Origin: Planctomycetota bacterium
GTDB lineage: Bacteria > Planctomycetota > UBA11346
DNA length: 64,000 bases
Reading direction: 5' to 3'
Assembly: GCA_016745075.1 (NCBI GenBank)
Contig: JADGDD010000008.1
Span: forward strand, 10,678 to 74,677
Program-made: the position numbers and the translations under genes
The notes under the pieces: generated by a model
Told to the model about the DNA's origin: nothing
What the model saw: the letters and a program-made list of their open reading frames with translations, nothing else
Database searches by the model: none
Shown here: positions 1,029 to 16,620 of the stretch, piece after piece
How the letters are laid out: each line of letters starts with the position of its first letter
How positions within the stretch are numbered: the stretch's first letter is position 1

Positions 1029-3626
1029 ATGCACACACCAAAACACGTAGACATTGCACGCAAACTTCTGTTCAGTTTCCTTTTGATGTGGTTAATTTTT
1101 CTGTCTTTTGGGGTGTTATCAGTTTATTGGGTTGATAACGCCAGCACGCTCACACGTACGTTTTACAACCAACCCTTAGTCGTTTCCAATGCAGTTCTAC
1201 AAGCAAATATTTCCATCACCAAAATGCATCGTAATATGAAGGATGTTGTGCTCTTCTCAGGGATAGAACGTAGCCAAAATGCTATTGCAAACGTAAAACA
1301 ACACGAACAAGAGGTCTATGAGCAACTAACCATCATACAGTCAAAGATATGGGGGGCAGACGGGCAAAAGCGAGTAACCGAAACTCGTAGAGTATTTGAT
1401 CAATGGAGACCCATTCGTATGGAAGTGATTGATCTCGCCTCAAATGGTAAACGTCAAGAAGCGTCTGAAATAACAATAGAAAAAGGGGCAAAGCATGTTG
1501 CCGAGTTAGAAAAGAAAATACTTCAACTCACGCAATATGCACAAAACAGATCGCTGCTCTTTATTCAGGAAGCTGAAGACACTCAATTTCACACCACAAT
1601 TTTTACCGTAACATTTCTATGTTTGGGTACGCTTGGCTCCTTTCTCATTGCACATGTTACCATACAGCAAACAACACGCTCTGAAGAAAAACTCCTAGAG
1701 AGTGAAGAAAAATACCGTGTTTTAGTTGAAAATATGGATGATGGCGTCAGCACTATGGATAAACATGGTATTTTCCACTACGCAAATGAACGGTTTGCAG
1801 AAATTTTTGGCTATCAACTTAATGAAATTATCGGAACACACTGGACTGATATTTTTGACAACACATCACATAAAATGATACGTAACCAAATTGCTCAGCG
1901 TAAAGCTGGAGTGACCAGCGTTTATGAAATAGAACATACCACGTGCGATGGTAAAGAATTGTTTTTGCGAGTCTCTGCTGTACCGGTCTACAACCGTAAC
2001 GGCGAAATGAACGGTAGCACTGGAGTCGTTTCTGACATTACCAATCACAAACAGTTTGAGCAAACACTGATGCAAGCAAAAACGGAAGCTGATGTTGCTA
2101 ACCGTACAAAATCAGAATTCCTTGCCAATATGAGCCATGAAATCCGTACACCTATGAATGCAATAATCGGATTTAGCGACCTTCTACTTAATGAGAACAA
2201 AAAACGAGCACAATATGATAAACTCTCCGCAAAAGACATCACTCAAATACAAAAAATATCTATCTCGGCAAAAAACTTACTCTCTGTTATTAATGACATT
2301 CTTGATTTCTCTAAAGTTGAAGCTGGAAAGTTAGAAATTGAAAGCATCGACTTTGATCTTCGTATTATCCTCCATAACATGCAGACTCTTCTCCAAAAAA
2401 GCGCACAACAAAATAACGTCACCTTCTCTGTGACTATTGCCGAGAATGTTCCTTATTTTTTGAAAGGTGATCCTCATAGACTGTACCAAGTACTTCTCAA
2501 CCTCACTAATAATGCGATTCAATTTACACATAATGGTACTGTCTCCATATATATCACGCAAGAAAAGCATGCTTCTACAGGAGTGCAACTACGGTTCATG
2601 GTGGAAGATACTGGAATTGGCATTCCAGCCAAACTACAAAACAAAATATTTAATGCATTTAGTCAAGCTGACTCGTCTCATGCCCGCCGCTACGGAGGCA
2701 CAGGTTTAGGATTGGTCATTTCCAAACGGCTTGCACAATTGATGGGTGGGGAAATAACATTCTCCAGCACCGAAGGTAGAGGTAGCACATTTTACTTCAC
2801 GACCACTTTCGATGTTGGCACCATGCCAATACGTAATGACCATACGGCAGATTTCAAAGTCCACAATTTACGCATTCTCTTAGTTGAAGACAACCTGTTC
2901 AATCAAGAACTCATTACTGCCATTCTTAACAATCAGAAAATCACCATTGCCAACAACGGTAAAGAGGCGGCAAATATTTTGGAACAAGAATGTTTTGATA
3001 TGATCTTAATGGACATTCAGATGCCCATTATGGATGGATTTGAAACAACCACTCTTATCCGCGATCGTCATTCAAATATTCTTGATCACGATGTTTTTAT
3101 TACTGCAATGACTGCCCATGCTACAAAAGAAGACCGTCAAAAATGTTTTGACACAGGAATGAATAAATATTTACCCAAACCACTTGAGGCCGATGCCTTA
3201 CTCTTCATTATTAATCAACACTTTGGCAAGACCCACAGCGCCAGCACTTTCCGAAAACAGCAATCACACAGTACATTATTAAATATACCATTATTTCTAG
3301 ATAACATACGCAATAATAAACAATTAGCGGCTAAAATGATTGGTATTTTTCTTGATGGTTGCCGAGAAAAATGTACGACTATCAAGACAGCCATCCACAA
3401 CAATGATGCAAACATGCTGAGCTCTTCTGCCCACTCCTTCAAAGGCATGTTGTCTTATTTCTGTCAGCAAGGCACAAAACTGTCCTATCAGCTCGAACAA
3501 ATAGGAACATCAGGAGAAATTAAGCAAGAAGATGCTATTTTATTCTTTGACCAACTTGAAAGCATCGTACATCGTATAGAACCAGAGCTTAAAGACCTTA
3601 AGTCTACATGGGATACCTGCGCTTAA
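1029..3626 (+). CDS. Hybrid sensor histidine kinase/response regulator (TM sensor region, PAS, HisKA, HATPase_c, receiver, C-terminal HPt)
   Basis: Two hydrophobic segments flank a ~160-aa putative periplasmic region; PAS-like block; H-box ANMSHEIRTPMNAIIGFSDLL; ATPase G-boxes EDTGIGIP and GGTGLGLVISKRLAQLMGG; receiver ILLVEDN...LMDIQMPIMDGFE; HPt-like SAHSFKGMLSYF. Start ambiguous (in-frame candidates 861 TTG/ATG, 957, 1029); 1029 chosen because GAGG lies ~12 nt upstream and a TM helix follows. Confidence 0.85.
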   Translation: MHTPKHVDIARKLLFSFLLMWLIFLSFGVLSVYWVDNASTLTRTFYNQPLVVSNAVLQANISITKMHRNMKDVVLFSGIERSQNAIANVKQHEQEVYEQLTIIQSKIWGADGQKRVTETRRVFDQWRPIRMEVIDLASNGKRQEASEITIEKGAKHVAELEKKILQLTQYAQNRSLLFIQEAEDTQFHTTIFTVTFLCLGTLGSFLIAHVTIQQTTRSEEKLLESEEKYRVLVENMDDGVSTMDKHGIFHYANERFAEIFGYQLNEIIGTHWTDIFDNTSHKMIRNQIAQRKAGVTSVYEIEHTTCDGKELFLRVSAVPVYNRNGEMNGSTGVVSDITNHKQFEQTLMQAKTEADVANRTKSEFLANMSHEIRTPMNAIIGFSDLLLNENKKRAQYDKLSAKDITQIQKISISAKNLLSVINDILDFSKVEAGKLEIESIDFDLRIILHNMQTLLQKSAQQNNVTFSVTIAENVPYFLKGDPHRLYQVLLNLTNNAIQFTHNGTVSIYITQEKHASTGVQLRFMVEDTGIGIPAKLQNKIFNAFSQADSSHARRYGGTGLGLVISKRLAQLMGGEITFSSTEGRGSTFYFTTTFDVGTMPIRNDHTADFKVHNLRILLVEDNLFNQELITAILNNQKITIANNGKEAANILEQECFDMILMDIQMPIMDGFETTTLIRDRHSNILDHDVFITAMTAHATKEDRQKCFDTGMNKYLPKPLEADALLFIINQHFGKTHSASTFRKQQSHSTLLNIPLFLDNIRNNKQLAAKMIGIFLDGCREKCTTIKTAIHNNDANMLSSSAHSFKGMLSYFCQQGTKLSYQLEQIGTSGEIKQEDAILFFDQLESIVHRIEPELKDLKSTWDTCA

Positions 3627-3882
3627 TGGTTCTTTTTTCCTCTGACAATATCCCGTCGTGCAAGCTATCGGCTAGGGCAACATGGTACAAAACACCTCTG
3701 TACGTAGGGTTCGTATGCCAACTGGTTATACATAGGCTGTTTTCAATCGGTCATCTCTTCTCCTCAACTTGCGCACCAAAGCCGTTCTTATAAGGTCTTG
3801 GTTTTCCACCACCTGTAACGATGTGCCTATGGCCTACCGTTACATTACTCTTGGTAGAGAGTCCTACCGAACGGAGACATCT

Positions 3883-4461
3883 ATGTCTAAAAGCATTATA
3901 GGCACCCAAACCGAAAAAAACCTCTTACTTGCTTTTGCTGGTGAATCACAAGCACGCAACCGCTACACCTTCTTTGCCAGTGCTGCAAAGAAAGAAGGCC
4001 TAGTACAAATTGCTGACATTTTTTCCGAAACTGCTGAACAAGAGAAAGAACACGCTAAACGTTTTTTCAAGTTCTTAGAAGGTGGTGATCTACAAATTAC
4101 AGAAACCTTTCCTGCTGGAAAAGTGGGCAGCACTCTTGAAAATCTACGAGCTGCAGCCGCAGGCGAAGAACATGAATGGGAAGAAGTCTATCCAGCATTT
4201 GCTCAAGTTGCTCGTGATGAAGGTTTCCCACAAATTGCTACTGCCTTCGAAGCCATTGCCATAGCAGAAAAACAACACGGCAAACGCTACAAAGACCTTG
4301 CCGATAACCTTGATGCAGGGCAAGTCTTTAAAAGAAATGGACAAGTTGTGTGGCGCTGCCGTAACTGTGGTTACCTCCATGAAGCAGAAGATGCTCCTAA
4401 AGTTTGTCCTGCCTGTTTGCATGCACAAGCTCACTTTGAAATACTAGCCGAAAACTGGTAG
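3883..4461 (+). CDS. rbr: Rubrerythrin (ferritin-like diiron domain plus C-terminal rubredoxin-like CxxC...CxxC)
   Basis: NLLLAFAGESQARNRYTFFA ... EEHEW ... C-terminal RCRNCGYLHE...VCPACLHAQ; start moved to ATG 3883 (MSKSIIGT) inside the longer listed ORF. Confidence 0.9.
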   Translation: MSKSIIGTQTEKNLLLAFAGESQARNRYTFFASAAKKEGLVQIADIFSETAEQEKEHAKRFFKFLEGGDLQITETFPAGKVGSTLENLRAAAAGEEHEWEEVYPAFAQVARDEGFPQIATAFEAIAIAEKQHGKRYKDLADNLDAGQVFKRNGQVVWRCRNCGYLHEAEDAPKVCPACLHAQAHFEILAENW

Positions 4462-4508
4462 CACGTCTTCACTTAGTATCAGCTGATTCTAAGAATTTCT
4501 AGAAGCGA

Positions 4509-4551
4509 ATTCTATGAAACAGGCTCACTGTGTAAGCCTGTTTCATAGAAT
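4509..4551. terminator. Bidirectional hairpin between convergent rubrerythrin and glycyl-radical-enzyme genes
   Basis: Perfect 16-bp inverted repeat attctatgaaacaggc / gcctgtttcatagaat with an 11-nt loop, lying between the two stop codons; T-rich flank on the + side. Confidence 0.5.
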
Positions 4552-4558
4552 ATAGATT

Positions 4559-6913
4559 TTAGTTCAAAGTCCGTTCTAACACCTCTCTCTGAACCTTAGG
4601 CGGAAGCTCAACAAAACGTGCGGAAAAACCACCGACTCGTACAATAAGGTTCTGCCATTTCTCTGGTTCTTTCAGTGCAGCCTCAAGGTCTCCTTTGCCA
4701 ACGACGTTAATCATGGCTTGTGGTCCGCCAGAACGAAAATAGACGGCAAGTAGGGCTTCAAATTTTGTACGCGTTTTGGTGACAGTCTCTTTGGAAAATT
4801 TCATATTTTGAGTCGTGCCTGCATGGCAGTCTGTACGCAATGATAACAATGAATTCAAAAAGGCGGTTACGCCGGACTTGTCTGCACCAGGCTGAGGGTT
4901 GTTAGCATTAGCAAGATGATCCCAATCATATCGACCATCAGCAGAAGCCATGGTTTGGCTTCCCAATCCAACATTAGCCTGGTTATTGATCACAACAATT
5001 AAATAGGAAGCAAGCCCAATACGCTGCGCTTGTGCTGCTGTGCTTTCACAACAACGTTCGTGAATACAGGCGGCCATGGCATCTGCCTCTGTATGTTCAT
5101 TTCCATATTTTGGGACCGCTAGCAATTGTTGGCGTATATGTTCATGTCCTTCAAAGTTAACAGCGAGTGCAGACATCAATTCATCTGCACTGATTTTTTT
5201 CTGTTCATACACGAGGTGCTTTATTGCGAGGAGAGAGTCTGCGACGTTTATTTGCCCGTAGGATTCTAGCGTTCCCCCGAGGTGAGCCAAGCCACCATCA
5301 AACATACCTGCACCTGCTTCCAAGCAGTCATCATATAACAAACTCCAAAGTCCATAGGCGCAGTGGTCTGCTACAACTTTATACTCCAATGCCTGTTGAT
5401 CTGCGAGTAACTCTATCCAATAATCCATATTTTGGAAATACATCTTTAACAACTGATCAAAATCAGGGATGTCACGCAGCAAGGCACAAGCCGGCATGTA
5501 GGTTTTTCTCCCTGTATAGGGCTCGGTATTATTATGGAGCATGCATTCTAATATTTTGCTATGATTAAAAACACCAGACGGTGTGCCAAAGCTCTTTTTA
5601 TACAATACATATTCACCACAGCCATAGGGCACATACTGTTCTGCCCATTCTTCTGATACCTGAAATGCTTTTTGTACCGATGGTATATTAACATCATCGT
5701 TGTATAACATCGGGAAGGTGTGTCCTTCCGCGATACTATCCAAGGCATGACTATATAATTCTGGATCTTGGCCAGTATAAAAACGCAGAGACAATTGTGG
5801 AGCTGGCAAGCAAACACGTCTTGTTGCTTCTATGGCCACATGGGCAAAACGATTTGCTGCCTGCTCGTTACGTCGCCCTTTACCACCAATGATAATACGG
5901 TTATCGTAGGGCGCTCCATTATAGTTTATTATGTCCCAAAGGTTTGCACAAAGGTCTAGCGCTTCGGCTTCTGTTAATCGACCAGCTTCCAAATCAGCAA
6001 CAAGAAAATCCCCTAAATATTCATCCATTCGCCCCCATGAATACGTAGCAGAATACACACCATAGAGTAAGGTTAATTGCATCGCCTCATGTAAGGTTTG
6101 AGGAGCATTTTTTGTAATAGCAAGCAAAGCTGTGCGCATCTGCATGCATCCCAAGCGCTGCTGTTCGTCTATACACGTATGTGCGATTAAGCCCGCGTGC
6201 TCTGCTAATGCCACGGCGCAGGTTTTTATTCCATCGAGAGAAATAAGTAGGCCATCATACATGGCCACAGGCTCATTGGCCGCTTCAGCTCGCATTTTTC
6301 TGTGTTGCACATCTGCATATAAACCGGGTAATCCTTTTTTCATTAATTTATCATAGTCAAAGTGTGGGCCGGTATTGCGCACCAAAGGGTGGCCTACACT
6401 TGCTGCCTCCTTGAGAGACAAATTATTAATGGCAGGCATTTCTCGTTTCATTTCTGGAGTCAATGCCGCTTCAAATCGTGCACAGGTCGTTTCTGTTTCC
6501 CAAAAGTCTACAATACCTTGCAATTCTGTTCGTACCGCATCATCTGGCTGGAGGTCTTCTATTTTTTTGTCCAAAATATTTTTATGACAATAATATCCTG
6601 CACCAGGACCAGAGCCAGGACACAATGGTAGAAAACCCAATGCTGGAATGTGATGCTTGGCCGCATTCCATTTATACAATACCGCATCTACGCCCGGCGT
6701 TGCAATGCAGCGACCTGCTAACAAATCATTCGGTTTCACAGGAGATAAAGTTGCTGGATACTGTGCTGCTAGACAACGGGCTTCTCGAATCGCTTTATCT
6801 TCATCAATGTTCGCTTTATAGACAGCGGTGAACTGGCGTTCTACTTGGAATGCATCTTCACAAAATGGATGTACAGCATGCGTAGATACCGTGTATAATG
6901 GTGCGTTTGTCAT
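4559..6913 (-). CDS. Glycyl radical enzyme (pyruvate formate-lyase / PFL2 superfamily), substrate unknown
   Basis: 784 aa; C-terminal glycyl radical motif IVRVGGFSARFVELPPKVQREVLERT; mid-protein GCGE loop consistent with the thiyl-radical Cys/Glu site; RBS GAAGGA before ATG at 6913. Confidence 0.85.
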   Translation of the reverse strand: MTNAPLYTVSTHAVHPFCEDAFQVERQFTAVYKANIDEDKAIREARCLAAQYPATLSPVKPNDLLAGRCIATPGVDAVLYKWNAAKHHIPALGFLPLCPGSGPGAGYYCHKNILDKKIEDLQPDDAVRTELQGIVDFWETETTCARFEAALTPEMKREMPAINNLSLKEAASVGHPLVRNTGPHFDYDKLMKKGLPGLYADVQHRKMRAEAANEPVAMYDGLLISLDGIKTCAVALAEHAGLIAHTCIDEQQRLGCMQMRTALLAITKNAPQTLHEAMQLTLLYGVYSATYSWGRMDEYLGDFLVADLEAGRLTEAEALDLCANLWDIINYNGAPYDNRIIIGGKGRRNEQAANRFAHVAIEATRRVCLPAPQLSLRFYTGQDPELYSHALDSIAEGHTFPMLYNDDVNIPSVQKAFQVSEEWAEQYVPYGCGEYVLYKKSFGTPSGVFNHSKILECMLHNNTEPYTGRKTYMPACALLRDIPDFDQLLKMYFQNMDYWIELLADQQALEYKVVADHCAYGLWSLLYDDCLEAGAGMFDGGLAHLGGTLESYGQINVADSLLAIKHLVYEQKKISADELMSALAVNFEGHEHIRQQLLAVPKYGNEHTEADAMAACIHERCCESTAAQAQRIGLASYLIVVINNQANVGLGSQTMASADGRYDWDHLANANNPQPGADKSGVTAFLNSLLSLRTDCHAGTTQNMKFSKETVTKTRTKFEALLAVYFRSGGPQAMINVVGKGDLEAALKEPEKWQNLIVRVGGFSARFVELPPKVQREVLERTLN

Positions 6914-6916
6914 AAT

Positions 6917-7894
6917 TTATTTCCTTCTGTTTAATTTTATATAACGCCCACCAAGTAGCCATTCACTGATATACAGATTTCCATCTGCATCTGCGGTTAT
7001 GCCATGAGGGCTGTTTAGTATCCCTACTGGTAAATCAGGTGGTTGTAATTCATTCTTTTCATTAAGAGCATTGGGCCAGCCCGGACGTGATACACATTCT
7101 TTTCCATCTGCCAGAGTTGCTACTACCGCATTCTCTGCATCCAAAACGACTAACTGCGCACATAAATCGACTATAATCACATATGTTTCGACTTGAGCAA
7201 ATGCACTTGGGCTCCGAAATTCTTTATGGGTTATTACTGAGTGAAAACAACCCGTACTATCAAATATTTGGACGCGACCATTTCCTCTATCTGCCACATA
7301 GATCAAGGTCTGTTCTACTCTACGCGTATCAATCCAGACGCTATGCGGACAGGCAAAGAGACCTGCTCCTTCGCTACCATTTATACTGCACACATGCTGA
7401 CCGCTCGCACTGAGACAATGGACAACGCCATACCCATAGCCATCTGCTATCCATATGTGTCCAGTTTCTGTATCTACGGCTACGCCGGTTGGTTTAAATT
7501 GTGTGTCATCTGCACTGTACCCACAGTGTTCTGGACCAAAACGTTGGACCACCGCTCCCGTACCCGTACAGACAAGCACTTGACCAATACCATGTTTGGT
7601 TTCATCACCATCTTTATGACCAATATCCGCTACTAAAATGTAATTTTCATTTTCACTCCGCATACAGCATAAGGCGTGCGTTTCTACCACAGGTGCTGCA
7701 ATTTCAGCAACACGTAGAAGCTTTCCTGCGGGACTATAAAAAGACAAGACGGGATCATTAACATCACCAACGACAATCTCACCATCTGCGGTACAAGCCA
7801 TACCATGATGTGAAAAATATTCTGGTTTAGAGGGACGCTGACCCCAATTTTCTTGCCATTCAAAGTTCAGTGGTCCAGCTTGCAATTGAGTCAT
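6917..7894 (-). CDS. NHL-repeat six-bladed beta-propeller protein
   Basis: Repeated blade motifs such as YVADRGNGRVQIFD, HIWIADGYGYGVV, NLYISEWL; start ATG overlaps the upstream PhyH stop (ATGA). Confidence 0.6.
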   Translation of the reverse strand: MTQLQAGPLNFEWQENWGQRPSKPEYFSHHGMACTADGEIVVGDVNDPVLSFYSPAGKLLRVAEIAAPVVETHALCCMRSENENYILVADIGHKDGDETKHGIGQVLVCTGTGAVVQRFGPEHCGYSADDTQFKPTGVAVDTETGHIWIADGYGYGVVHCLSASGQHVCSINGSEGAGLFACPHSVWIDTRRVEQTLIYVADRGNGRVQIFDSTGCFHSVITHKEFRSPSAFAQVETYVIIVDLCAQLVVLDAENAVVATLADGKECVSRPGWPNALNEKNELQPPDLPVGILNSPHGITADADGNLYISEWLLGGRYIKLNRRK

Positions 7895-8697
7895 TGTTCA
7901 TGCCCTACTGCTTGCCCAATAAGCTTCTCTCGCCATGAATTGTTTATCTCATATGGCTGCGCATAGGTATTGCCCGCCTGATCTTCTCCACGTGCAAGGT
8001 AAATGCGAAAGTCGGGATCATTTTCGTGTTGCGTAAAATGACAATCCGCAGAAAAATATCTGAGCGTTAATCCACAACGACGAATCATACTCGTATTGGG
8101 ATTACTGCCATGAATAATTCGGCCATCATGAATAGAACAATGGTTCGGATCTAATTCAAAAGCAACAGCACTATCTTTATCAAAACTACCAGCATCAATT
8201 TCTTCAGCAAAAACCGCATCATCCTTTACAAGGTGATAATTATGATCTGCAAGCAGGTGACTACCTGGGATAACCTGCAAGCACCCATTTTCTTTGAGAG
8301 ACGGGTCTAAAGCCAGCCACACCGTACAGACCGAATCCATACGGTCCAGCATACCAGCCCAATACGCACTATCTTCATGCCATGGAATACGCCGACCCGT
8401 ACCTGCTGGTTTGGTGATGAAATGGGTAGTAAATAGAACAATATTTGGGCCAATCAATTGCTCTACCATATCTAAAACCGTATCATGCAATGCCCACCTG
8501 AATAATTCAGGGAAAAGAAAATGTGGTTTATCCATTTCTTCTGGACGGCCATTATAGATCTCTTTCCATTCTGTAGCGATAGATTCATGATAGCACTGTA
8601 AATCAGTAAAATCTTGCTCAGATAATAATGGTGCTGTTGGTACTATATAACCTTGTTTTTTATAGGCAGCACACTCAGCGGCAGATAAAATTGCCAT
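7891..8697 (-). CDS. Phytanoyl-CoA dioxygenase (PhyH) family Fe(II)/2-oxoglutarate-dependent oxygenase
   Basis: PWHEDSAYW (HxD iron ligands) and a downstream His in IIHGSNPN; ATG at 8697 preceded by AAGGAG (the listed ORF begins at an in-frame TTG at 8700). Confidence 0.75.
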   Translation of the reverse strand: MAILSAAECAAYKKQGYIVPTAPLLSEQDFTDLQCYHESIATEWKEIYNGRPEEMDKPHFLFPELFRWALHDTVLDMVEQLIGPNIVLFTTHFITKPAGTGRRIPWHEDSAYWAGMLDRMDSVCTVWLALDPSLKENGCLQVIPGSHLLADHNYHLVKDDAVFAEEIDAGSFDKDSAVAFELDPNHCSIHDGRIIHGSNPNTSMIRRCGLTLRYFSADCHFTQHENDPDFRIYLARGEDQAGNTYAQPYEINNSWREKLIGQAVGHEQ

Positions 8698-8826
8698 CAA
8701 ATCTCCTTTTCTTCTCTCATCATTATATGAGCCGATAAAAGGGAAATCCTGTCATATTGTGATGAAAAACGACCCTCTTGTGATGTTTGCTTGCCATTTT
8801 AACCTTCCGCACTATCTTTTCGTGAT

Positions 8827-9666
8827 ATGTCCATGCAATTATTTTGGGATGACATCTGCGAACACAGCCCTGGGAATATGCTCCGCTGTGCTCAAGGTTA
8901 TTACACACCTGGATACCGTTTTCAGCAGCACTATCATGACTTTGCTGAATTCTTTCTCATCACAGAGGGTGAAGGTTATCATTACTGCGATGGCCATCGA
9001 TCTCCCTTACGAGCATCTTCCTGCTGCTTTATTCACCCAGATTGTGAACATTCTCTGACCGCTTCTGAAGAGAGCAGCATGTCCATCATCAACGTGGCCA
9101 TAGCTCCTCAATTATGGACCCATATTCACGATCTCTATTTTGATACTGCACAAGACTGGTTTTGGAGCCGCTCCAAAGGTTGTTCTGTTCATCACGTTCC
9201 CGAACAGGCTCGGCGGTCATTTATGGATGCAGTCACTGAATTAGAACAAGACCACTCAAGTCGCCTAGCAGAAGATGCGCTCCTTTTGCATTTTATCAAT
9301 ACGTTCACCACGACCACCACACAAACAAATAGCAATAAAGCACCACAATGGCTACAAGAACTACTGCTGACCATGAACGAACCAAAATATTTCCAAGACA
9401 GCATGGAGGCTATGGTGCGCTTAAGCGAAAAAAGCAGAGAACATATTAATCGAAGTATTCGTACATACTATCAACAAACGGCCACTGAATATATGAATGG
9501 ATTACGCATGCGCTATTCCTGCCGTCGCTTGCTTGAAAGCACTGATAGCATCATGAAGATTGCTCTTGATTGCGGATTTGAATCTCAAGCCCATTTTTTT
9601 CGCCTCTTTAAAAAGACACACCACTGCACGCCACGACAATTTAGAATGACTCGTAAAGTTCTCTAA
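8827..9666 (+). CDS. AraC family transcriptional regulator (cupin-like N-domain plus C-terminal AraC HTH)
   Basis: C-terminal SCRRLLESTDSIMKIALDCGFESQAHFFRLFKKTHHCTPRQFR is a typical AraC-type HTH pair; divergent from the PhyH-NHL-GRE operon. Confidence 0.8.
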   Translation: MSMQLFWDDICEHSPGNMLRCAQGYYTPGYRFQQHYHDFAEFFLITEGEGYHYCDGHRSPLRASSCCFIHPDCEHSLTASEESSMSIINVAIAPQLWTHIHDLYFDTAQDWFWSRSKGCSVHHVPEQARRSFMDAVTELEQDHSSRLAEDALLLHFINTFTTTTTQTNSNKAPQWLQELLLTMNEPKYFQDSMEAMVRLSEKSREHINRSIRTYYQQTATEYMNGLRMRYSCRRLLESTDSIMKIALDCGFESQAHFFRLFKKTHHCTPRQFRMTRKVL

Positions 9667-9721
9667 ACCGTAGCAGTCACAACTTATTTCTTCATCACAC
9701 GCTATCCAAAGGGTTTCCTCT

Positions 9722-12700
9722 ATGCGTATTCTTACTCTCCTCTTTTTTCTCTGCGGATTATGCTCAGCTTCCGATTGGCCGATGCTCCTGCATGACATTC
9801 AACGAAGTGGCATCAGTGAAGAACAGCCAACATTTCCGTTACACCATAACTGGAGCTATCAACCACTACAGGCTCCAGTACCAGCATGGGACAAACCAGC
9901 TTTACAAGATTATTTTAATGGATTTTCTTCCATACACCACGCACAAGCTTTTAACCGCGCCTACCACAGTATCTGCGCAAATAATAAAGTTTTCTTTGCA
10001 TCGTCTGCTAATGATAGCGTTGTCTGCCTTGATGCTGCCAGTGGCAAAACATTGTGGGTAGCACTCACCAGTGGGCCTATTCGTCTACCACCAACCTTCC
10101 ATAAAGGCTCACTGTACTGTGGTTCTGATGATGGTTTTGTCTACTGCTTTGATGCTAACACTGGAGCACTCTTATGGCGTTCCTGTCCAAGTGCGACCAT
10201 TCTGGCGCAACGCCCCGCTTATTTGCCAGGCAATAAGCGCATTATTTCTCGCATGCCCGTGCGCACTGGTTTTATTATTGATACAGAACAACAAACGATT
10301 TATGGCCAATGTGGTTTATTCCCAGAAGAGAAGGTTATTGCCTTTCAACTTGATCTCAACACCGGAGCAGTTGTGAGCTCCACTCAGGCCAACGCCGCGG
10401 AAGGATCAGTAACACGTATTGGTGATGAAATCTATGCCTCACGTGGACGGAAAAGTTTTATGATTTCTGATAGAACAGGTAAAGAGGTTTTTAAAAGTAA
10501 TAAAACAAAAGGAGCAGGTGTTACCTCTGGCTACGGCACTCTTGCTCTTACTGGCGGTAATGAGCGGAAAGAGCTTATGCTCTTTGATACAGAGAATAAA
10601 AAAATACTTGCTATGTGTACAGGCCTACGCGGTTTATTACTGAAAGACACACTGTATCTCATAGATGGAGCAACCATACAATCTTACAAAATCGCTGATC
10701 TCATACGTTTCCATAAAGAATATAATGACGCTCTCAACGGACCAATTAAACTCACGTGGTCTGATAAAAGCGAGTTGAAAGCGCAACGCAATCTCCAAAT
10801 AGAAAATGCTGTTCTCTGGAAACAACCCTGCACTTCCACCACTGCACTTATTGCCTGCGGATCGACCATCATTACCGGAGCTCCACAGCACATCACGGCG
10901 TTCGACAGCAATACGGGAGCCGTACTCTGGGAGCAACAGGTAGACGGAACCCCCTATTCTCTCGCTTTTTCTCATGGACGTTTATTCGCAAGCATGGACA
11001 ACGGCCATACACTGTGCTTTTCAGCTCAGGATCAAGATCATATTCTTCAAACAGAACAACACGATATAACCGCATTTTCTCCTGTAGATTCCATACAGCA
11101 GTATACCACGAATATCATCAAAGAATCTCCACAGAGCAAAGGATATTGTGTTATTGTCAACCCGAGCACTTGTGAAATAGCTTATGATATTGCCACCCGT
11201 TCTGATATGCATGTACTTTGTCTCATCGATGATGAAGAAGCCTGCTTAACAGCTCAACAACAATTATTGCCGACCGGCTTATATGGCACTCGCATTCACT
11301 ACCTACGCGGATCACTGTCTACTGTTCATATTCAAGATTACATCGCCACGGTTATTGTTAGTGAACAAGCCCTCAGTGATGAGATAGAATCAGAAGCACT
11401 TCGTATTGTTCGCCCAGAAGGTGGAGTCATCTTATGCTTTAATACAAGCACTCCTGCAAACGATAATTGGACCCAACACTCGGATAAAAATATATCATAC
11501 AGCCGTTACCAACGAGGCACACTTGCTGACACAGGAAACTGGAGTCATGCCTATGGTGGACCAGAGGCCACCAGTTGCAGTAATGATGATACCGTTCATG
11601 GACAATTTGAACTGCAATGGTTTGGTGCGCCTGGCCCTGAAAAAATGAATGACCGCCATCACCGCCCAATGCCACCATTGTATGCTCAAGGAAAAATGTT
11701 TGTACTTGGAAATGAGTACCTTTACGGCGTTGATGCATACAATGGAACCATACTTTGGGAACGCCCCGTCCCTGGTTCACGCCGACTTGGTATTATGTAC
11801 GATACAGCCCCAATGATAGCGCATGATCACAGTCTTTTCCTTTCAATCGGAACATCTTGCATTCAGATAGATGCCAACACTGGGGCCACACAACAAGAAT
11901 TTACGCCGCCGCAGACGAATTCCTCCTGGGGGTTTGTTGACCGTTATCAACAACTCCTACTTGGCAGCAGCCAACACAGCAATGCCAGTCTGACAAAAGT
12001 TGGAAAAATCAATAAACTCATGGAGGCAGATAATAGACTTGTTGCCGTAAGCACTCATCTATTTGCCCTTGATCTCAAACATGCAACAAAGAAATGGGAT
12101 CATAATTCAGGGCTTATCGTTAATTCAACTATTGTTCGCAGCGCAAATACGCTCTGCTTTTTAGAATCACGAAATCCAGAGCTGATAACAACAGATGCTG
12201 GTAGATTTGAACTCAATCAACTTGCAGAAAATGCTTCTCTGTATTTTGTAGCTCTGGATATAGAAAACGGACAGGTGCTCTGGGAAAAACAGACCAATCT
12301 TCCTTACAATAATGTGTTCTTTCTGCAAATCGCCAATGATACCCTGCTCGCCAGCGGCTCATATAACCAAGACAAACGTCGTCACTATGGCATGAGTGCT
12401 CTTTCACTGACTGATGGCAGCACGCGTTGGTCTTCCAATTTTGATGAAGGGAAAAAAGGTGGATCACATGGCGAACAATGGCAACACCCTGCTATTGTTG
12501 GCGAAAACATTTATCTGATGCATCACATTATCAGCCTCACAACTGGTACACGTAGCCAAGAGGGTGAAGGTGGCAGGAAATGGCGCAAAGGACATGGCTG
12601 CGGTACTATTTCCATGTCTAACAATGCCATATTTTACCGTGGCCAATGTATTACTGACCTACAAACGTGGAACCAAGAACGCATCTTCCGCGGCAATAAA

Positions 12701-12826
12701 CCAGGCTGCTGGATCAACCTTATTCCCGCAGGTGGCCTCTTGCTGATGCCGGAAGCCAGTGCTGGTTGCTCTTGCTCTGTACAAGTGCAAACGTCTATGG
12801 CATTGCGACCAGTGGGTCACAAATAA
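9722..12826 (+). CDS. Secreted PQQ-like beta-propeller repeat protein (BamB/PQQ-repeat family), ~1034 aa, multi-domain
   Basis: N-terminal signal peptide MRILTLLFFLCGLCSA; recurring propeller motifs (DG.VYCFDANTGALLW, ITAFDSNTGAVLWE, LYGVDAYNGTILWE); central degenerate Rossmann-like segment; paralog of 27528-30551. Confidence 0.65.
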   Translation: MRILTLLFFLCGLCSASDWPMLLHDIQRSGISEEQPTFPLHHNWSYQPLQAPVPAWDKPALQDYFNGFSSIHHAQAFNRAYHSICANNKVFFASSANDSVVCLDAASGKTLWVALTSGPIRLPPTFHKGSLYCGSDDGFVYCFDANTGALLWRSCPSATILAQRPAYLPGNKRIISRMPVRTGFIIDTEQQTIYGQCGLFPEEKVIAFQLDLNTGAVVSSTQANAAEGSVTRIGDEIYASRGRKSFMISDRTGKEVFKSNKTKGAGVTSGYGTLALTGGNERKELMLFDTENKKILAMCTGLRGLLLKDTLYLIDGATIQSYKIADLIRFHKEYNDALNGPIKLTWSDKSELKAQRNLQIENAVLWKQPCTSTTALIACGSTIITGAPQHITAFDSNTGAVLWEQQVDGTPYSLAFSHGRLFASMDNGHTLCFSAQDQDHILQTEQHDITAFSPVDSIQQYTTNIIKESPQSKGYCVIVNPSTCEIAYDIATRSDMHVLCLIDDEEACLTAQQQLLPTGLYGTRIHYLRGSLSTVHIQDYIATVIVSEQALSDEIESEALRIVRPEGGVILCFNTSTPANDNWTQHSDKNISYSRYQRGTLADTGNWSHAYGGPEATSCSNDDTVHGQFELQWFGAPGPEKMNDRHHRPMPPLYAQGKMFVLGNEYLYGVDAYNGTILWERPVPGSRRLGIMYDTAPMIAHDHSLFLSIGTSCIQIDANTGATQQEFTPPQTNSSWGFVDRYQQLLLGSSQHSNASLTKVGKINKLMEADNRLVAVSTHLFALDLKHATKKWDHNSGLIVNSTIVRSANTLCFLESRNPELITTDAGRFELNQLAENASLYFVALDIENGQVLWEKQTNLPYNNVFFLQIANDTLLASGSYNQDKRRHYGMSALSLTDGSTRWSSNFDEGKKGGSHGEQWQHPAIVGENIYLMHHIISLTTGTRSQEGEGGRKWRKGHGCGTISMSNNAIFYRGQCITDLQTWNQERIFRGNKPGCWINLIPAGGLLLMPEASAGCSCSVQVQTSMALRPVGHK

Positions 12827-14887: not shown

Positions 14888-15766
14888 TTACAGAGACGAC
14901 ACTTGCAATTGTTGGCGATAGGACTTTGGCGTTTGCCCCACTTCTTTTTTGAAGATCCGAGAAAAATAATTACTGTCATTGAAACCACTCGCAAAAGCGA
15001 TCTTGGTAATACTGTCATTCGTTGTGGTTAATAATGCTTTTGCATGATTAAGACGTAAGCGATTCAGGTACATAATGGGGGTCACACCATAGTCTGATTT
15101 GAAACGACGAATAAATTGATTAACAGATAAATGAGCTGCATCTGCTAACTCCGCCAAAGAAATATCTCTGCTGTATTCGCTTTCAAGGAGGGCAACGCTT
15201 TCTGCTAAAGCCATTAACGGGTTTGCCTCTGAATTTTCTTCTGAAAAGATACTACAAAGTTCAACAATTAACCGTTGCATCGCAGCAACTTTCCTTGCCT
15301 GAGGTGCTTGCGTGTGCCGAATAGGTTCAGTGAGATCGACACAGAGCGGCTTGATCATTTTCAATTGTTGAGCACTTAGTCTTAAACGATTATAATTACG
15401 TTCCTGTTCTCGATACACTGGCTCCAAAATAAAAAGCGCATGATAACCAGACAATGCAGTAAGATCATAGGTGTGTGCTTGTAACCACGTTGGTAAAAAC
15501 ATGCAGTTAATGATTTCCATATCCCGTGAATGGGCAAAGCCATGTACTTGCCCTGGCGCTATTGCAAAAACATCTCCGGCAGCAATCGGCACTAGGCCCC
15601 ACTCCGTTTGATGTTGGCCACTACCACGACAAACGATAACCAATTCGCTAAAATCATGGCGGTGAATGGGGTAATCATCACGCGGAAAACGCCAAAAGGA
15701 AGCTTGCACCGGAGCTGCTGGATGAAGCCCCTGTTTCTCTAAAGCAATAGTCGGAATCTGATGCAT
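14888..15766 (-). CDS. AraC family transcriptional regulator (cupin plus HTH)
   Basis: C-terminal LSVNQFIRRFKSDYGVTPIMYLNRLRLNHAKALL...ITKIAFASGFNDSNYFSRIFKKEVGQTP; divergent from the PhyH/URO-D-like operon. Confidence 0.85.
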   Translation of the reverse strand: MHQIPTIALEKQGLHPAAPVQASFWRFPRDDYPIHRHDFSELVIVCRGSGQHQTEWGLVPIAAGDVFAIAPGQVHGFAHSRDMEIINCMFLPTWLQAHTYDLTALSGYHALFILEPVYREQERNYNRLRLSAQQLKMIKPLCVDLTEPIRHTQAPQARKVAAMQRLIVELCSIFSEENSEANPLMALAESVALLESEYSRDISLAELADAAHLSVNQFIRRFKSDYGVTPIMYLNRLRLNHAKALLTTTNDSITKIAFASGFNDSNYFSRIFKKEVGQTPKSYRQQLQVSSL

Positions 15767-15864
15767 GGTGATATTATGCTAAAGAATGGTGACAAGGTCA
15801 AGGCTCAGCATCATCAACACTATAGACTCTTAGAATAAACATACGATAAAATAAAGGAATTTAC

Positions 15865-16620
15865 ATGCCAGCACTCACGAAAGCTCAGATAACGGATTAC
15901 CATGAACATGGTTTTGTTATGCTGGGAAAAATTATGGATGATGCAACCTTAGATGTCATTCGCTCAGAAGAGCAGAGGCTCATGGCAACCGTTGGTTCTG
16001 CCCATGATGAAGATCTTGCTAACCGCAGTGTCTTCATTTCTTTATGCCACCATCATAGTGCTGCGTTTCGTAACGTTGCCACGCAAGGGCCACACCTTGA
16101 TGCGGTAGAACAAATTGTTGGCGAAGACTTCTTACTATGGTACACGCAGTTTGTTATAAAACATCCAGACACGGGGGATGCTAAGAGTGAGTTTCCGTGG
16201 CATCAAGATAATGGCTATGGCGCAATTACTCCCGATAATAACGTAACAGTTTGGATTGCTCTTGATGACGTGACCGAAGAAAACGGATGCGTATGGGTTG
16301 TGCCCGGCAGTCATAAACAGGGGCTACTTGACCATCAGAAAAAAAATGACTCATGGCATTTACATTTAGACGTCGAGACCGATGGTATTCCTGCCATTAT
16401 GAAAGCAGGCGAAGCGGTGATGTTTAGTGGATTAACCCTGCACCGTTCAAAATTAAATCACACGAATGCTCCACGCCGCGCTATGTTTATGGAATACGCA
16501 CATGCCAGTAGTCACTTAATTGAAGATCAGCAAGCACTTATCCATAAATCTCACACATGGATGGTACGTGGACAATTGCCCCTAGACATTCCCAATCAAG
16601 CACCGGAGACACAATCATGA
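15865..16620 (+). CDS. Phytanoyl-CoA dioxygenase (PhyH) family Fe(II)/2OG oxygenase
   Basis: FPWHQDNGYG (HxD), VVPGSHKQG, GLTLHRS; RBS AAGGAA upstream of ATG 15865. Confidence 0.75.
   Translation: MPALTKAQITDYHEHGFVMLGKIMDDATLDVIRSEEQRLMATVGSAHDEDLANRSVFISLCHHHSAAFRNVATQGPHLDAVEQIVGEDFLLWYTQFVIKHPDTGDAKSEFPWHQDNGYGAITPDNNVTVWIALDDVTEENGCVWVVPGSHKQGLLDHQKKNDSWHLHLDVETDGIPAIMKAGEAVMFSGLTLHRSKLNHTNAPRRAMFMEYAHASSHLIEDQQALIHKSHTWMVRGQLPLDIPNQAPETQS

Follow-up and report, generated by a model that had tools for sequence, protein, structure and literature searches.

A PhyH-family hydroxylase, a PAL-like NHL propeller protein and a glycyl radical enzyme encoded in one operon of a Planctomycetota bacterium

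A 64,000-nucleotide stretch of DNA from a Planctomycetota bacterium of the lineage UBA11346 (GenBank assembly GCA_016745075.1, contig JADGDD010000008.1, positions 10,678 to 74,677), referred to hereafter as the window, contains at positions 6917 to 8697 the first two genes of a tricistronic operon rather than a gene pair. The operon encodes, on the minus strand, a PhyH-family hydroxylase, an NHL beta-propeller protein with a predicted active site resembling that of peptidylamidoglycolate lyase (PAL), and a glycyl radical enzyme (GRE). An earlier, sequence-only reading had described the first two genes as a possible module for hydroxylation followed by cleavage, by analogy with peptidylglycine amidating monooxygenase (PAM). 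Its hydroxylase and propeller genes were confirmed at their coordinates, as was their translational coupling through an ATGA overlap. Its two-gene limit did not hold, as the third cistron (6913..4559) had been overlooked, which changes the nature of the module. The reading of the operon given here rests on sequence, structure prediction and gene context; a two-step reaction of hydroxylation and lysis is tentatively favoured for its first two products, at slightly less than even confidence. The core features of the operon are as follows.

7891..8697, minus strand: PhyH-family Fe(II)/2-oxoglutarate (2OG) dioxygenase gene, 268 amino acids from ATG, Pfam PF05721
7891..7894, minus strand: four bases, ATGA, shared by the stop codon of PhyH and the start codon of NHL, GGGCATGAACAATGACTCAA as read
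6917..7894, minus strand: gene for a PAL-like NHL six-bladed beta-propeller, 325 amino acids, Pfam PF01436
4559..6913, minus strand: gene for a GRE of the PFL2/eliminase type, 784 amino acids, Pfam PFL-like and Gly_radical

The three genes and the PhyH and GRE proteins

A Shine-Dalgarno-like AAGGAG was located 7 nt 5' of the PhyH start codon at 8697. The stop codon of this gene and the start codon of the NHL gene share four bases (7894..7891), and the NHL stop codon is separated from the GRE start by a spacer of only 3 nt, the ribosome-binding site of the GRE gene being AGAAGGAA. GC content and GC content at third codon positions were uniform over the three genes and the divergent AraC-family regulator gene next to them. 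A recent horizontal insertion of the PhyH and NHL genes was considered and rejected for want of a compositional signal. The best homologues of all three proteins were from the Planctomycetota/Verrucomicrobiota group.

The PhyH protein matched Pfam PF05721 with E=2.4e-27 (97 bits against a cut-off of 22). Its putative HxD...H iron triad consists of H107 and D109, in the motif WHEDS, and H196, with R207 as the predicted 2OG-binding arginine, and all four residues were invariant in 41 of 41 members of the subfamily. Because the iron motif is HxD and not HxA/G, the protein is predicted to be of the hydroxylase type and not a halogenase; a match to the NCBIfam 'chlorinating enzyme' (42 bits against a cut-off of 226) was dismissed on this basis. 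The best solved relatives were 6zyk, EvdO2, human PhyH, SnoK and MysH (PDB 9c9n, E=8e-9), the nearest including the sugar-modifying enzymes EvdO1/O2 and SnoK.

Pfam matches of the GRE were to PFL-like (E=8e-98) and Gly_radical (E=4.8e-19). It contains the glycyl motif VRVGGFSARF, with the glycine at about position 762, and the cysteine loop YGCGEY with Cys 432 and Glu 434. Among NCBIfam models it matched the PFL2-3 subfamily with 296 bits and stayed under every equivalog cut-off, and its best solved relatives (E about 1e-55 to 1e-58) were 8iof, a chain deposited as benzylsuccinate synthase alpha subunit, glycerol dehydratase and CutC. Judged by these features, the GRE is intact and a member of an uncharacterised clade.

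The NHL propeller and its putative PAL-type active site

The NHL protein (Pfam PF01436, E=1.4e-13, 50.5 bits against a cut-off of 20) belongs to a family of single-domain proteins of 300-360 amino acids, the closest of which are about 40% identical to it, and has the six-bladed NHL beta-propeller of the PAL fold family. It was compared with the rat PAL core, the sequence of which was checked against PDB 3FVZ and 5WM0 (100% identity, numbering 498-820). A profile-profile comparison extended over 248 columns with a probability of 99.2% (E=8e-20) and aligned the rat zinc ligands H585, H690 and H786 with H73, H184 and H297 of the window protein, each of which is at the start of a predicted strand (72-80, 183-189 and 296-301). 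The catalytic Tyr654 of the rat enzyme aligned with Y153, in a common DGY motif, and the catalytic Arg706 with R203, in a common VADRxNGRxQ motif. The roles of the rat residues are those reported by Chufan et al. 2009. They are restated in the paper on the Exiguobacterium enzyme ExiPAL (PMC10900485).

All five residues were invariant in 81 of 81 sequences, comprising the window protein and those of 80 species; in an alignment of 46 members H73, Y153 (DGYG), H184 (PHS), R203 (ADRxNxR) and H297 (SPHG) were likewise without exception. Further invariant motifs, PGWPN, SEW and a C-terminal GGR, were specific to the family. The protein is thus predicted to be PAL-like in its active site and not only in its fold. 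No signal peptide was detected in the NHL protein, the N-terminus of which is hydrophilic, and a cytosolic location is predicted. A signal peptide or structural role, and a lack of conserved metal-binding residues, were the features that the sequence-only reading had named as speaking against a lyase; neither was encountered, the histidines H73, H184 and H297 being invariant.

With regard to a non-catalytic role, the top sequence and fold matches of the protein were the NHL domains of TRIM proteins and of Thin, which bind RNA or protein, as would be expected of a binding or scaffold propeller. These matches stem from the repeated generic NHL motif, however. Three histidines, a tyrosine and an arginine that never vary across phyla indicate the active site of an enzyme, and the aligned TRIM sequences do not have this set; a scaffold function is therefore regarded as most improbable. 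A generic NHL domain of no enzymatic meaning was rejected on account of the invariant PAL catalytic residues, and a secreted structural role for want of a signal peptide.

Proteins in which an NHL domain of this kind is fused to PhyH or to peptidylglycine alpha-hydroxylating monooxygenase (PHM) were not present among 120 word-index matches or among the best 150 of 1.84 billion representatives. The family profile also matched giant proteins of 1,200-7,700 amino acids with 9-39 separately matched stretches of NHL-type repeats each, by which the count of 2,336 matches at E<=1e-30 is inflated.

Genomic context of the operon and of its families

The neighbourhoods of the NHL family were surveyed with one genome per species, 185,579 species yielding 327 relatives of which the best 80 loci were analysed with flanks of 6 kb on either side. 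A PhyH gene was present in eight of these loci, always as the immediate same-strand neighbour of the NHL gene. In seven loci from Chloroflexota/Dehalococcoidia the PhyH gene was upstream, with gaps of 10-77 bp, and in a locus from Brocadiaceae it was 49 bp downstream. As all eight PhyH genes found in the flanks directly adjoin the NHL gene on the same strand, the pairing recurs above chance. The NHL-linked PhyH proteins, including that of the window, fell into three subfamilies with mutual identities of 25-30%, all with intact iron triads, and the PhyH-linked NHL proteins were distributed over at least three branches of a neighbour-joining tree of the NHL family, from which it follows that the association was assembled more than once. 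Six of the Dehalococcoidia/Chloroflexota loci (L019, L039, L055, L066, L082 and L083, at about 3300-7000) contain a trio of genes for a galactonate-dehydratase-like enolase (391 amino acids), PhyH and the PAL-like NHL protein. In L037, L054 and L067 the enolase and NHL genes were kept and the PhyH open reading frame (ORF) was missing from the gap.

The commonest partner of the NHL family was a medium-chain zinc dehydrogenase, encoded in 36 of the 80 loci and directly beside the NHL gene in 34. The example from an Acidimicrobiales locus (L004) was a glutathione-independent formaldehyde dehydrogenase equivalog (TIGR02819, 735 bits against a cut-off of 637), to which about eight of the 36 appear to be close, as inferred from E values of 1e-143 or lower. 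NHL genes beside a gene of the formaldehyde-dehydrogenase type were observed in Acidimicrobiia, Mycobacteriales, Caldilineaceae and Dehalococcoidia (36 of L012-L091, for example L017, L045 and L074; L004-L007). In a single locus of the 80, from Acidimicrobiaceae (L035:4081-6987), the partner was an ORF with a cytochrome P450 domain, on the same strand and 64 bp upstream of the NHL gene. The remaining neighbours were diverse, including an alginate lyase-ThuA fusion, a sulfatase, GH38, GFO/IDH/MocA, an aminotransferase, an M50B peptidase and DUF1501. Among the 25 most frequent of 85 Pfam families (63 'other' neighbours), no copper monooxygenase was found and no third recurrent partner for the 36 loci with neither PhyH nor dehydrogenase. 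A literature search revealed no paper on formaldehyde dehydrogenases together with NHL proteins, so that, as far as could be found, their adjacency has no earlier description.

These neighbours could also suit a metal-dependent lactonase or esterase of the SMP-30/gluconolactonase kind, whose step in an oxidative sugar pathway would come after that of a dehydrogenase or oxygenase. The fold is a propeller in either case, some sources name relatives of the protein 'sugar lactone lactonase YvrE', and the zinc-dependent dehydrogenase as commonest partner, the galactonate-dehydratase-like enolase just upstream in Dehalococcoidia and the carbohydrate-related character of other neighbours would all fit such a pathway. 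The match to the Pfam SGL model was below threshold, however (21.3 against 26.3 bits, over the 48 residues 31-78), and structure-based identity was 12-14% to lactonases compared with 22% to PAL. Propeller lactonases such as SMP30, PON1 and Drp35 bind calcium through Glu, Asn and Asp ligands, whereas the invariant set in this family is the His3/Tyr/Arg of PAL. In addition, the dehydrogenase of L004, the one scanned from the group of close matches, is a formaldehyde dehydrogenase and not a sugar dehydrogenase. A lactonase is on balance considered improbable.

For the PhyH protein, the neighbourhoods of its closest relatives (45-52% identity) were examined in 80 metagenomic loci. A divergent AraC gene was just upstream of PhyH in 35 of them, and occasional same-strand partners encoded URO-D, xylose-isomerase-like TIM barrels, GH38, a desaturase and a 2-hydroxyacid dehydrogenase. 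A single locus of the 80 (L120:4080-9858, JFJP01020382.1) contained the same type of GRE: a divergent AraC gene and a PhyH gene (50% identical) are followed directly by the GRE gene and then by genes for a radical-SAM activase and a xylose-isomerase-like TIM barrel. This GRE is 37% identical to that of the window and has the same YGCGEY and VRVGGFSARF motifs; no NHL gene is present in the locus. Six loci were available for GREs 53-59% identical to that of the window. A divergent AraC gene was found in four and an adjacent activase gene in four, with neighbours including rhamnosidase, GH127, sulfatase, URO-D, RhaT and ThuA, and no PhyH or NHL gene was present in any of the six. Genes for URO-D (L010, L093, L127) and for AP_endonuc_2 TIM barrels (L010, L120, L128, L131) recur beside both the PhyH subfamily and the GRE clade, which hints at a shared pathway. 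The trio of PhyH, NHL and GRE was not found in any other locus of the NHL-side and PhyH-side surveys.

The immediate surroundings of the operon in the window comprise the following features.

8827..9666, plus strand: divergent AraC-family regulator gene, 279 amino acids, with cupin ligand domain and helix-turn-helix (HTH) domain (Pfam HTH_18, AraC_binding, Cupin_2)
8698..8826: 129-bp divergent intergenic region between the AraC and PhyH genes, presumed promoter/operator from its position only
4509..4551: hairpin with a perfect 20-bp stem and a 3-nt loop, likely bidirectional terminator, from RNA folding
3769-4461, plus strand: rubrerythrin gene, convergent with the GRE gene (NCBIfam equivalog, 296 bits against a cut-off of 200)

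The hairpin begins 8 nt past the GRE stop codon, between the convergent GRE and rubrerythrin genes, and its minimum free energy of -36.8 kcal/mol (z=-5.9) was not equalled by any of 200 shuffled sequences. It likely marks the end of the operon as a bidirectional terminator, and with the hairpin in this position there is no room for an activase gene after the GRE gene. A scan for intrinsic terminators gave no enrichment over shuffled sequences, with none internal to the operon, and a scan for the sigma-70 consensus gave no enrichment either, including in 8698..8826. Rfam searches over 3500..10000 revealed no riboswitch or known RNA, the sole match being a chance hit of a miRNA model to the terminator hairpin. 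The divergent AraC protein, which showed 22-30% identity to all AraC regulators compared, is presumed to regulate the operon. Rubrerythrin is typical of anaerobes and microaerophiles that have to cope with oxygen.

Adjoining the AraC gene, a gene at 9722-12826 (plus strand) encodes a secreted protein of 1034 amino acids with PQQ_2/BamB-like propeller repeats and an obvious signal peptide. A counterpart of 1075 amino acids, 28% identical to it, is encoded at L008:312-3539 near an AraC-GRE-activase unit, so that the neighbourhood of the PQQ_2 protein and AraC is loosely conserved in distant genomes. A second divergent AraC/PhyH pair, with a PhyH protein 33% identical to the first, is present at 14888-16620 of the window. 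Next come an ORF of 373 amino acids without a Pfam match and then, to about 24000, a run of glycan-biosynthesis genes encoding GT2, GT9, a DegT aminotransferase, a rhamnosyl transferase, a polysaccharide deacetylase and GT4.

The surveys also bear on whether a shared transcript means a shared pathway. A PhyH-NHL pair, or the NHL gene by itself, might have landed in a common 'AraC and PhyH' or 'AraC and GRE' unit, with the products acting on different substrates. Consistent with this, the AraC/PhyH unit stands alone in 35 of 80 loci and the AraC/GRE(-activase) unit occurs in four of six, no other locus examined has all three genes, and the window GRE lacks the activase gene that comes next in four of its six relatives. 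The tight coupling by an ATGA overlap and a 3-nt spacer, the uniform composition, and the independent recurrence elsewhere of both the PhyH-NHL and the PhyH-GRE pairing argue against it, and we regard unrelated functions as unlikely, if less so than the other alternatives.

Proposed reaction, its significance and comparison with known systems

In the favoured reading, the PhyH protein would use Fe(II), 2OG and O2 to hydroxylate a C-H bond next to a heteroatom, for example in an N-alkyl or O-alkyl group. The NHL protein, with zinc bound at H73/H184/H297 and with Y153 and R203 in the roles that their counterparts have in PAL, would then break the resulting C(OH)-X bond of the hemiaminal or hemiacetal type, yielding an aldehyde and the de-alkylated compound. 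This would be the logic of PHM and PAL with an iron/2OG hydroxylase in place of the copper enzyme, carried out by separate proteins in the cytoplasm. The carbohydrate-related neighbourhoods of the operon families point to a small carbohydrate- or sugar-derived substrate rather than a peptide. From the strong link of the NHL family to the formaldehyde-dehydrogenase type, formaldehyde is the suggested aldehyde in many genomes; a methyl or hydroxymethyl group would then be removed oxidatively. The PhyH and P450 partners would accordingly be the makers of the hydroxylated substrate for the NHL lyase.

Several observations weigh against this reading. Regarding the metal ligands of PAL, to the conservation of which the sequence-only reading had looked, the three zinc histidines are kept in all 81 sequences but the calcium ligand Asp787 is not: its position is G298 in the window protein and glycine in 79 of the 81. 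The position of a second active-site arginine, Arg533, is valine in the window protein, and the arginine is not kept in the family. Other neighbours predominate around the closest NHL relatives (40-41% identity, PVC clade), and in genomes as rich in PhyH genes as that of the window, where a second one is about 7 kb away, some chance adjacency is to be expected. An NHL neighbour was found in none of the 80 loci of the closest PhyH relatives, which are mostly stand-alone AraC-PhyH units and otherwise monocistronic, so that this type of PhyH does not generally need a lyase. As to the aldehyde, 28 of the 36 dehydrogenase partners, mostly from Chloroflexota, match the L004 FdhA weakly (E about 1e-90); in the one of these that was scanned, FdhA was by far the best match, at 354 bits against the cut-off of 637. 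Many hydroxylated hemiaminals and hemiacetals, moreover, collapse without an enzyme. With respect to the third cistron, the co-transcription of an O2-requiring PhyH and an O2-labile GRE is odd, no ORF of at least 100 amino acids with the activase motif CxxxCxxC was found in the 64-kb window, and tblastn searches of the window with four activases of the clade gave a best E of 0.007. The earlier idea of a PAM-like hydroxylation and cleavage has partial support in silico, from the PAL-type active site, the recurring pairing and a partner that fits an aldehyde product, and is weakened by Asp787, Arg533 and the PhyH relatives.

The same active site could belong to a genuine peptidylamidoglycolate lyase, with PhyH hydroxylating the C-terminal glycine of a peptide. 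The PAL catalytic residues are kept, bacterial PALs cleave peptidyl-alpha-hydroxyglycine in vitro (PMC10900485), and iron/2OG enzymes are able to start oxidative peptide amidation (bioRxiv 10.1101/2025.10.30.685615). However, no gene for a precursor peptide, protease, exporter or other peptide-maturation function was found nearby, both proteins are predicted to be cytosolic, Arg533 is not kept, the main partner of the family, of the formaldehyde-dehydrogenase type, would not use glyoxylate, and the surroundings of both families are carbohydrate-related. True peptide amidation is thus very improbable, though less so than a scaffold.

Within the hydroxylation-then-lyase reading, the most probable role of the GRE is to act, independently of O2, on the compound that the other two enzymes handle or on a close relative of it, and the operon would in this way cover oxic and anoxic conditions. 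An O2-independent route is suggested by the recurrence of a GRE beside this type of PhyH in L120 and by the same kind of AraC regulator in both families. PhyH and the GRE might also act in sequence, the hydroxyl group from PhyH serving a radical elimination by the GRE, but this is harder to reconcile with the opposite oxygen needs of the two enzymes. In a broader form, the NHL family may represent the natural form of prokaryotic PALs, cytosolic zinc lyases that finish oxidative de-alkylation after PhyH or P450, and the operon may join O2-dependent and glycyl-radical routes to the same bond cleavage under one regulator. This generalisation is speculative and is considered unlikely to hold as a whole; the frequent pairing with formaldehyde dehydrogenase would be explained if the NHL lyases release formaldehyde.

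To our knowledge, animal peptide amidation is the sole well-understood use of a PAL lyase. For bacterial PAL-like enzymes, the locus and the family-wide contexts suggest a natural role that can be tested: the lyase would follow an iron/2OG or P450 hydroxylase and precede formaldehyde dehydrogenase. If the proposal is true, a PAL-like lyase would supply the second step that bacterial oxidative de-alkylation has lacked, the design of hydroxylation followed by cleavage would have been assembled independently with a different hydroxylase chemistry, and candidates would be at hand for the enzymes of a catabolism that releases formaldehyde in Chloroflexota, Actinomycetota and the PVC group, as would new lyases for biocatalysis. 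The co-transcription of O2-dependent and O2-labile enzymes could reveal a hedging between two chemistries at oxic-anoxic boundaries.

Among known systems, the glycyl radical eliminases glycerol dehydratase, CutC, HypD, IslA and HpsG gave full-length matches to the window GRE (E about 1e-47 to 1e-57) and have the glycyl motif and the Cys-x-Glu loop in common with it. They have valine after the catalytic cysteine, where the window GRE has glycine, and come with activases, whereas the window GRE has none in 64 kb and is co-transcribed with an O2-dependent enzyme. No paper on a GRE co-transcribed with a PhyH enzyme was found in the literature search.

The Fe(II)/2OG oxygenases TauD and AtsK achieve C-X cleavage by hydroxylation and spontaneous collapse. 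MysH, like the window hydroxylase a member of the PhyH family, has been proposed to hydroxylate the alpha carbon of an N-linked glycine, followed by release of glyoxylate (PMC10666671). Hydroxylation next to N, O or S would here give an unstable hemiaminal-type intermediate and then an aldehyde, by analogy a PHM-like chemistry with a precedent inside the PhyH family. The second step of MysH, TauD and AtsK is thought to be enzyme-free, whereas the window hydroxylase gene is coupled to that of a dedicated PAL-like lyase.

Prokaryotic PALs such as ExiPAL from Exiguobacterium are stand-alone six-bladed propellers with a His3 zinc site and a catalytic tyrosine and arginine, as in the window family (PMC10900485). 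Bacterial homologues with these residues cleave alpha-hydroxyglycine compounds in vitro and already serve as biocatalysts, their natural function being stated as unknown in the same paper, which also cites US patent 9,096,843 on prokaryotic PALs (PMC10900485). No paper on the gene context of bacterial PALs, or on a pair of PhyH and PAL-like proteins, was found in the literature search. ExiPAL keeps the calcium-site aspartate after the third histidine (H309-D310), whereas the window family has His-Gly, and the window protein is therefore assigned, from these residues, to a putative His-Gly subgroup within the PAL-like propeller fold family, as opposed to the His-Asp of PALs.

PAM itself, comprising PHM and PAL (rat PAL core, PDB 3FVZ/3FW0), resembles the window pair in combining a hydroxylase with a six-bladed NHL propeller lyase, and the zinc histidines, Tyr654 and Arg706 of PAL are kept in the window protein together with the DGY, PHS and VADRxNGRxQ motifs, while Asp787 (glycine) and Arg533 are not. 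The hydroxylase of PAM is the copper- and ascorbate-dependent PHM, whereas that of the window is a Fe(II)/2OG enzyme of the PhyH family (PF05721); PAM is a fusion working in the secretory pathway on peptides, whereas the window proteins are separate, translationally coupled, without signal peptide and predicted to be cytosolic, and their context suggests no counterpart of the peptide substrate. By analogy, the window system would work like PAM, without being a member of it.

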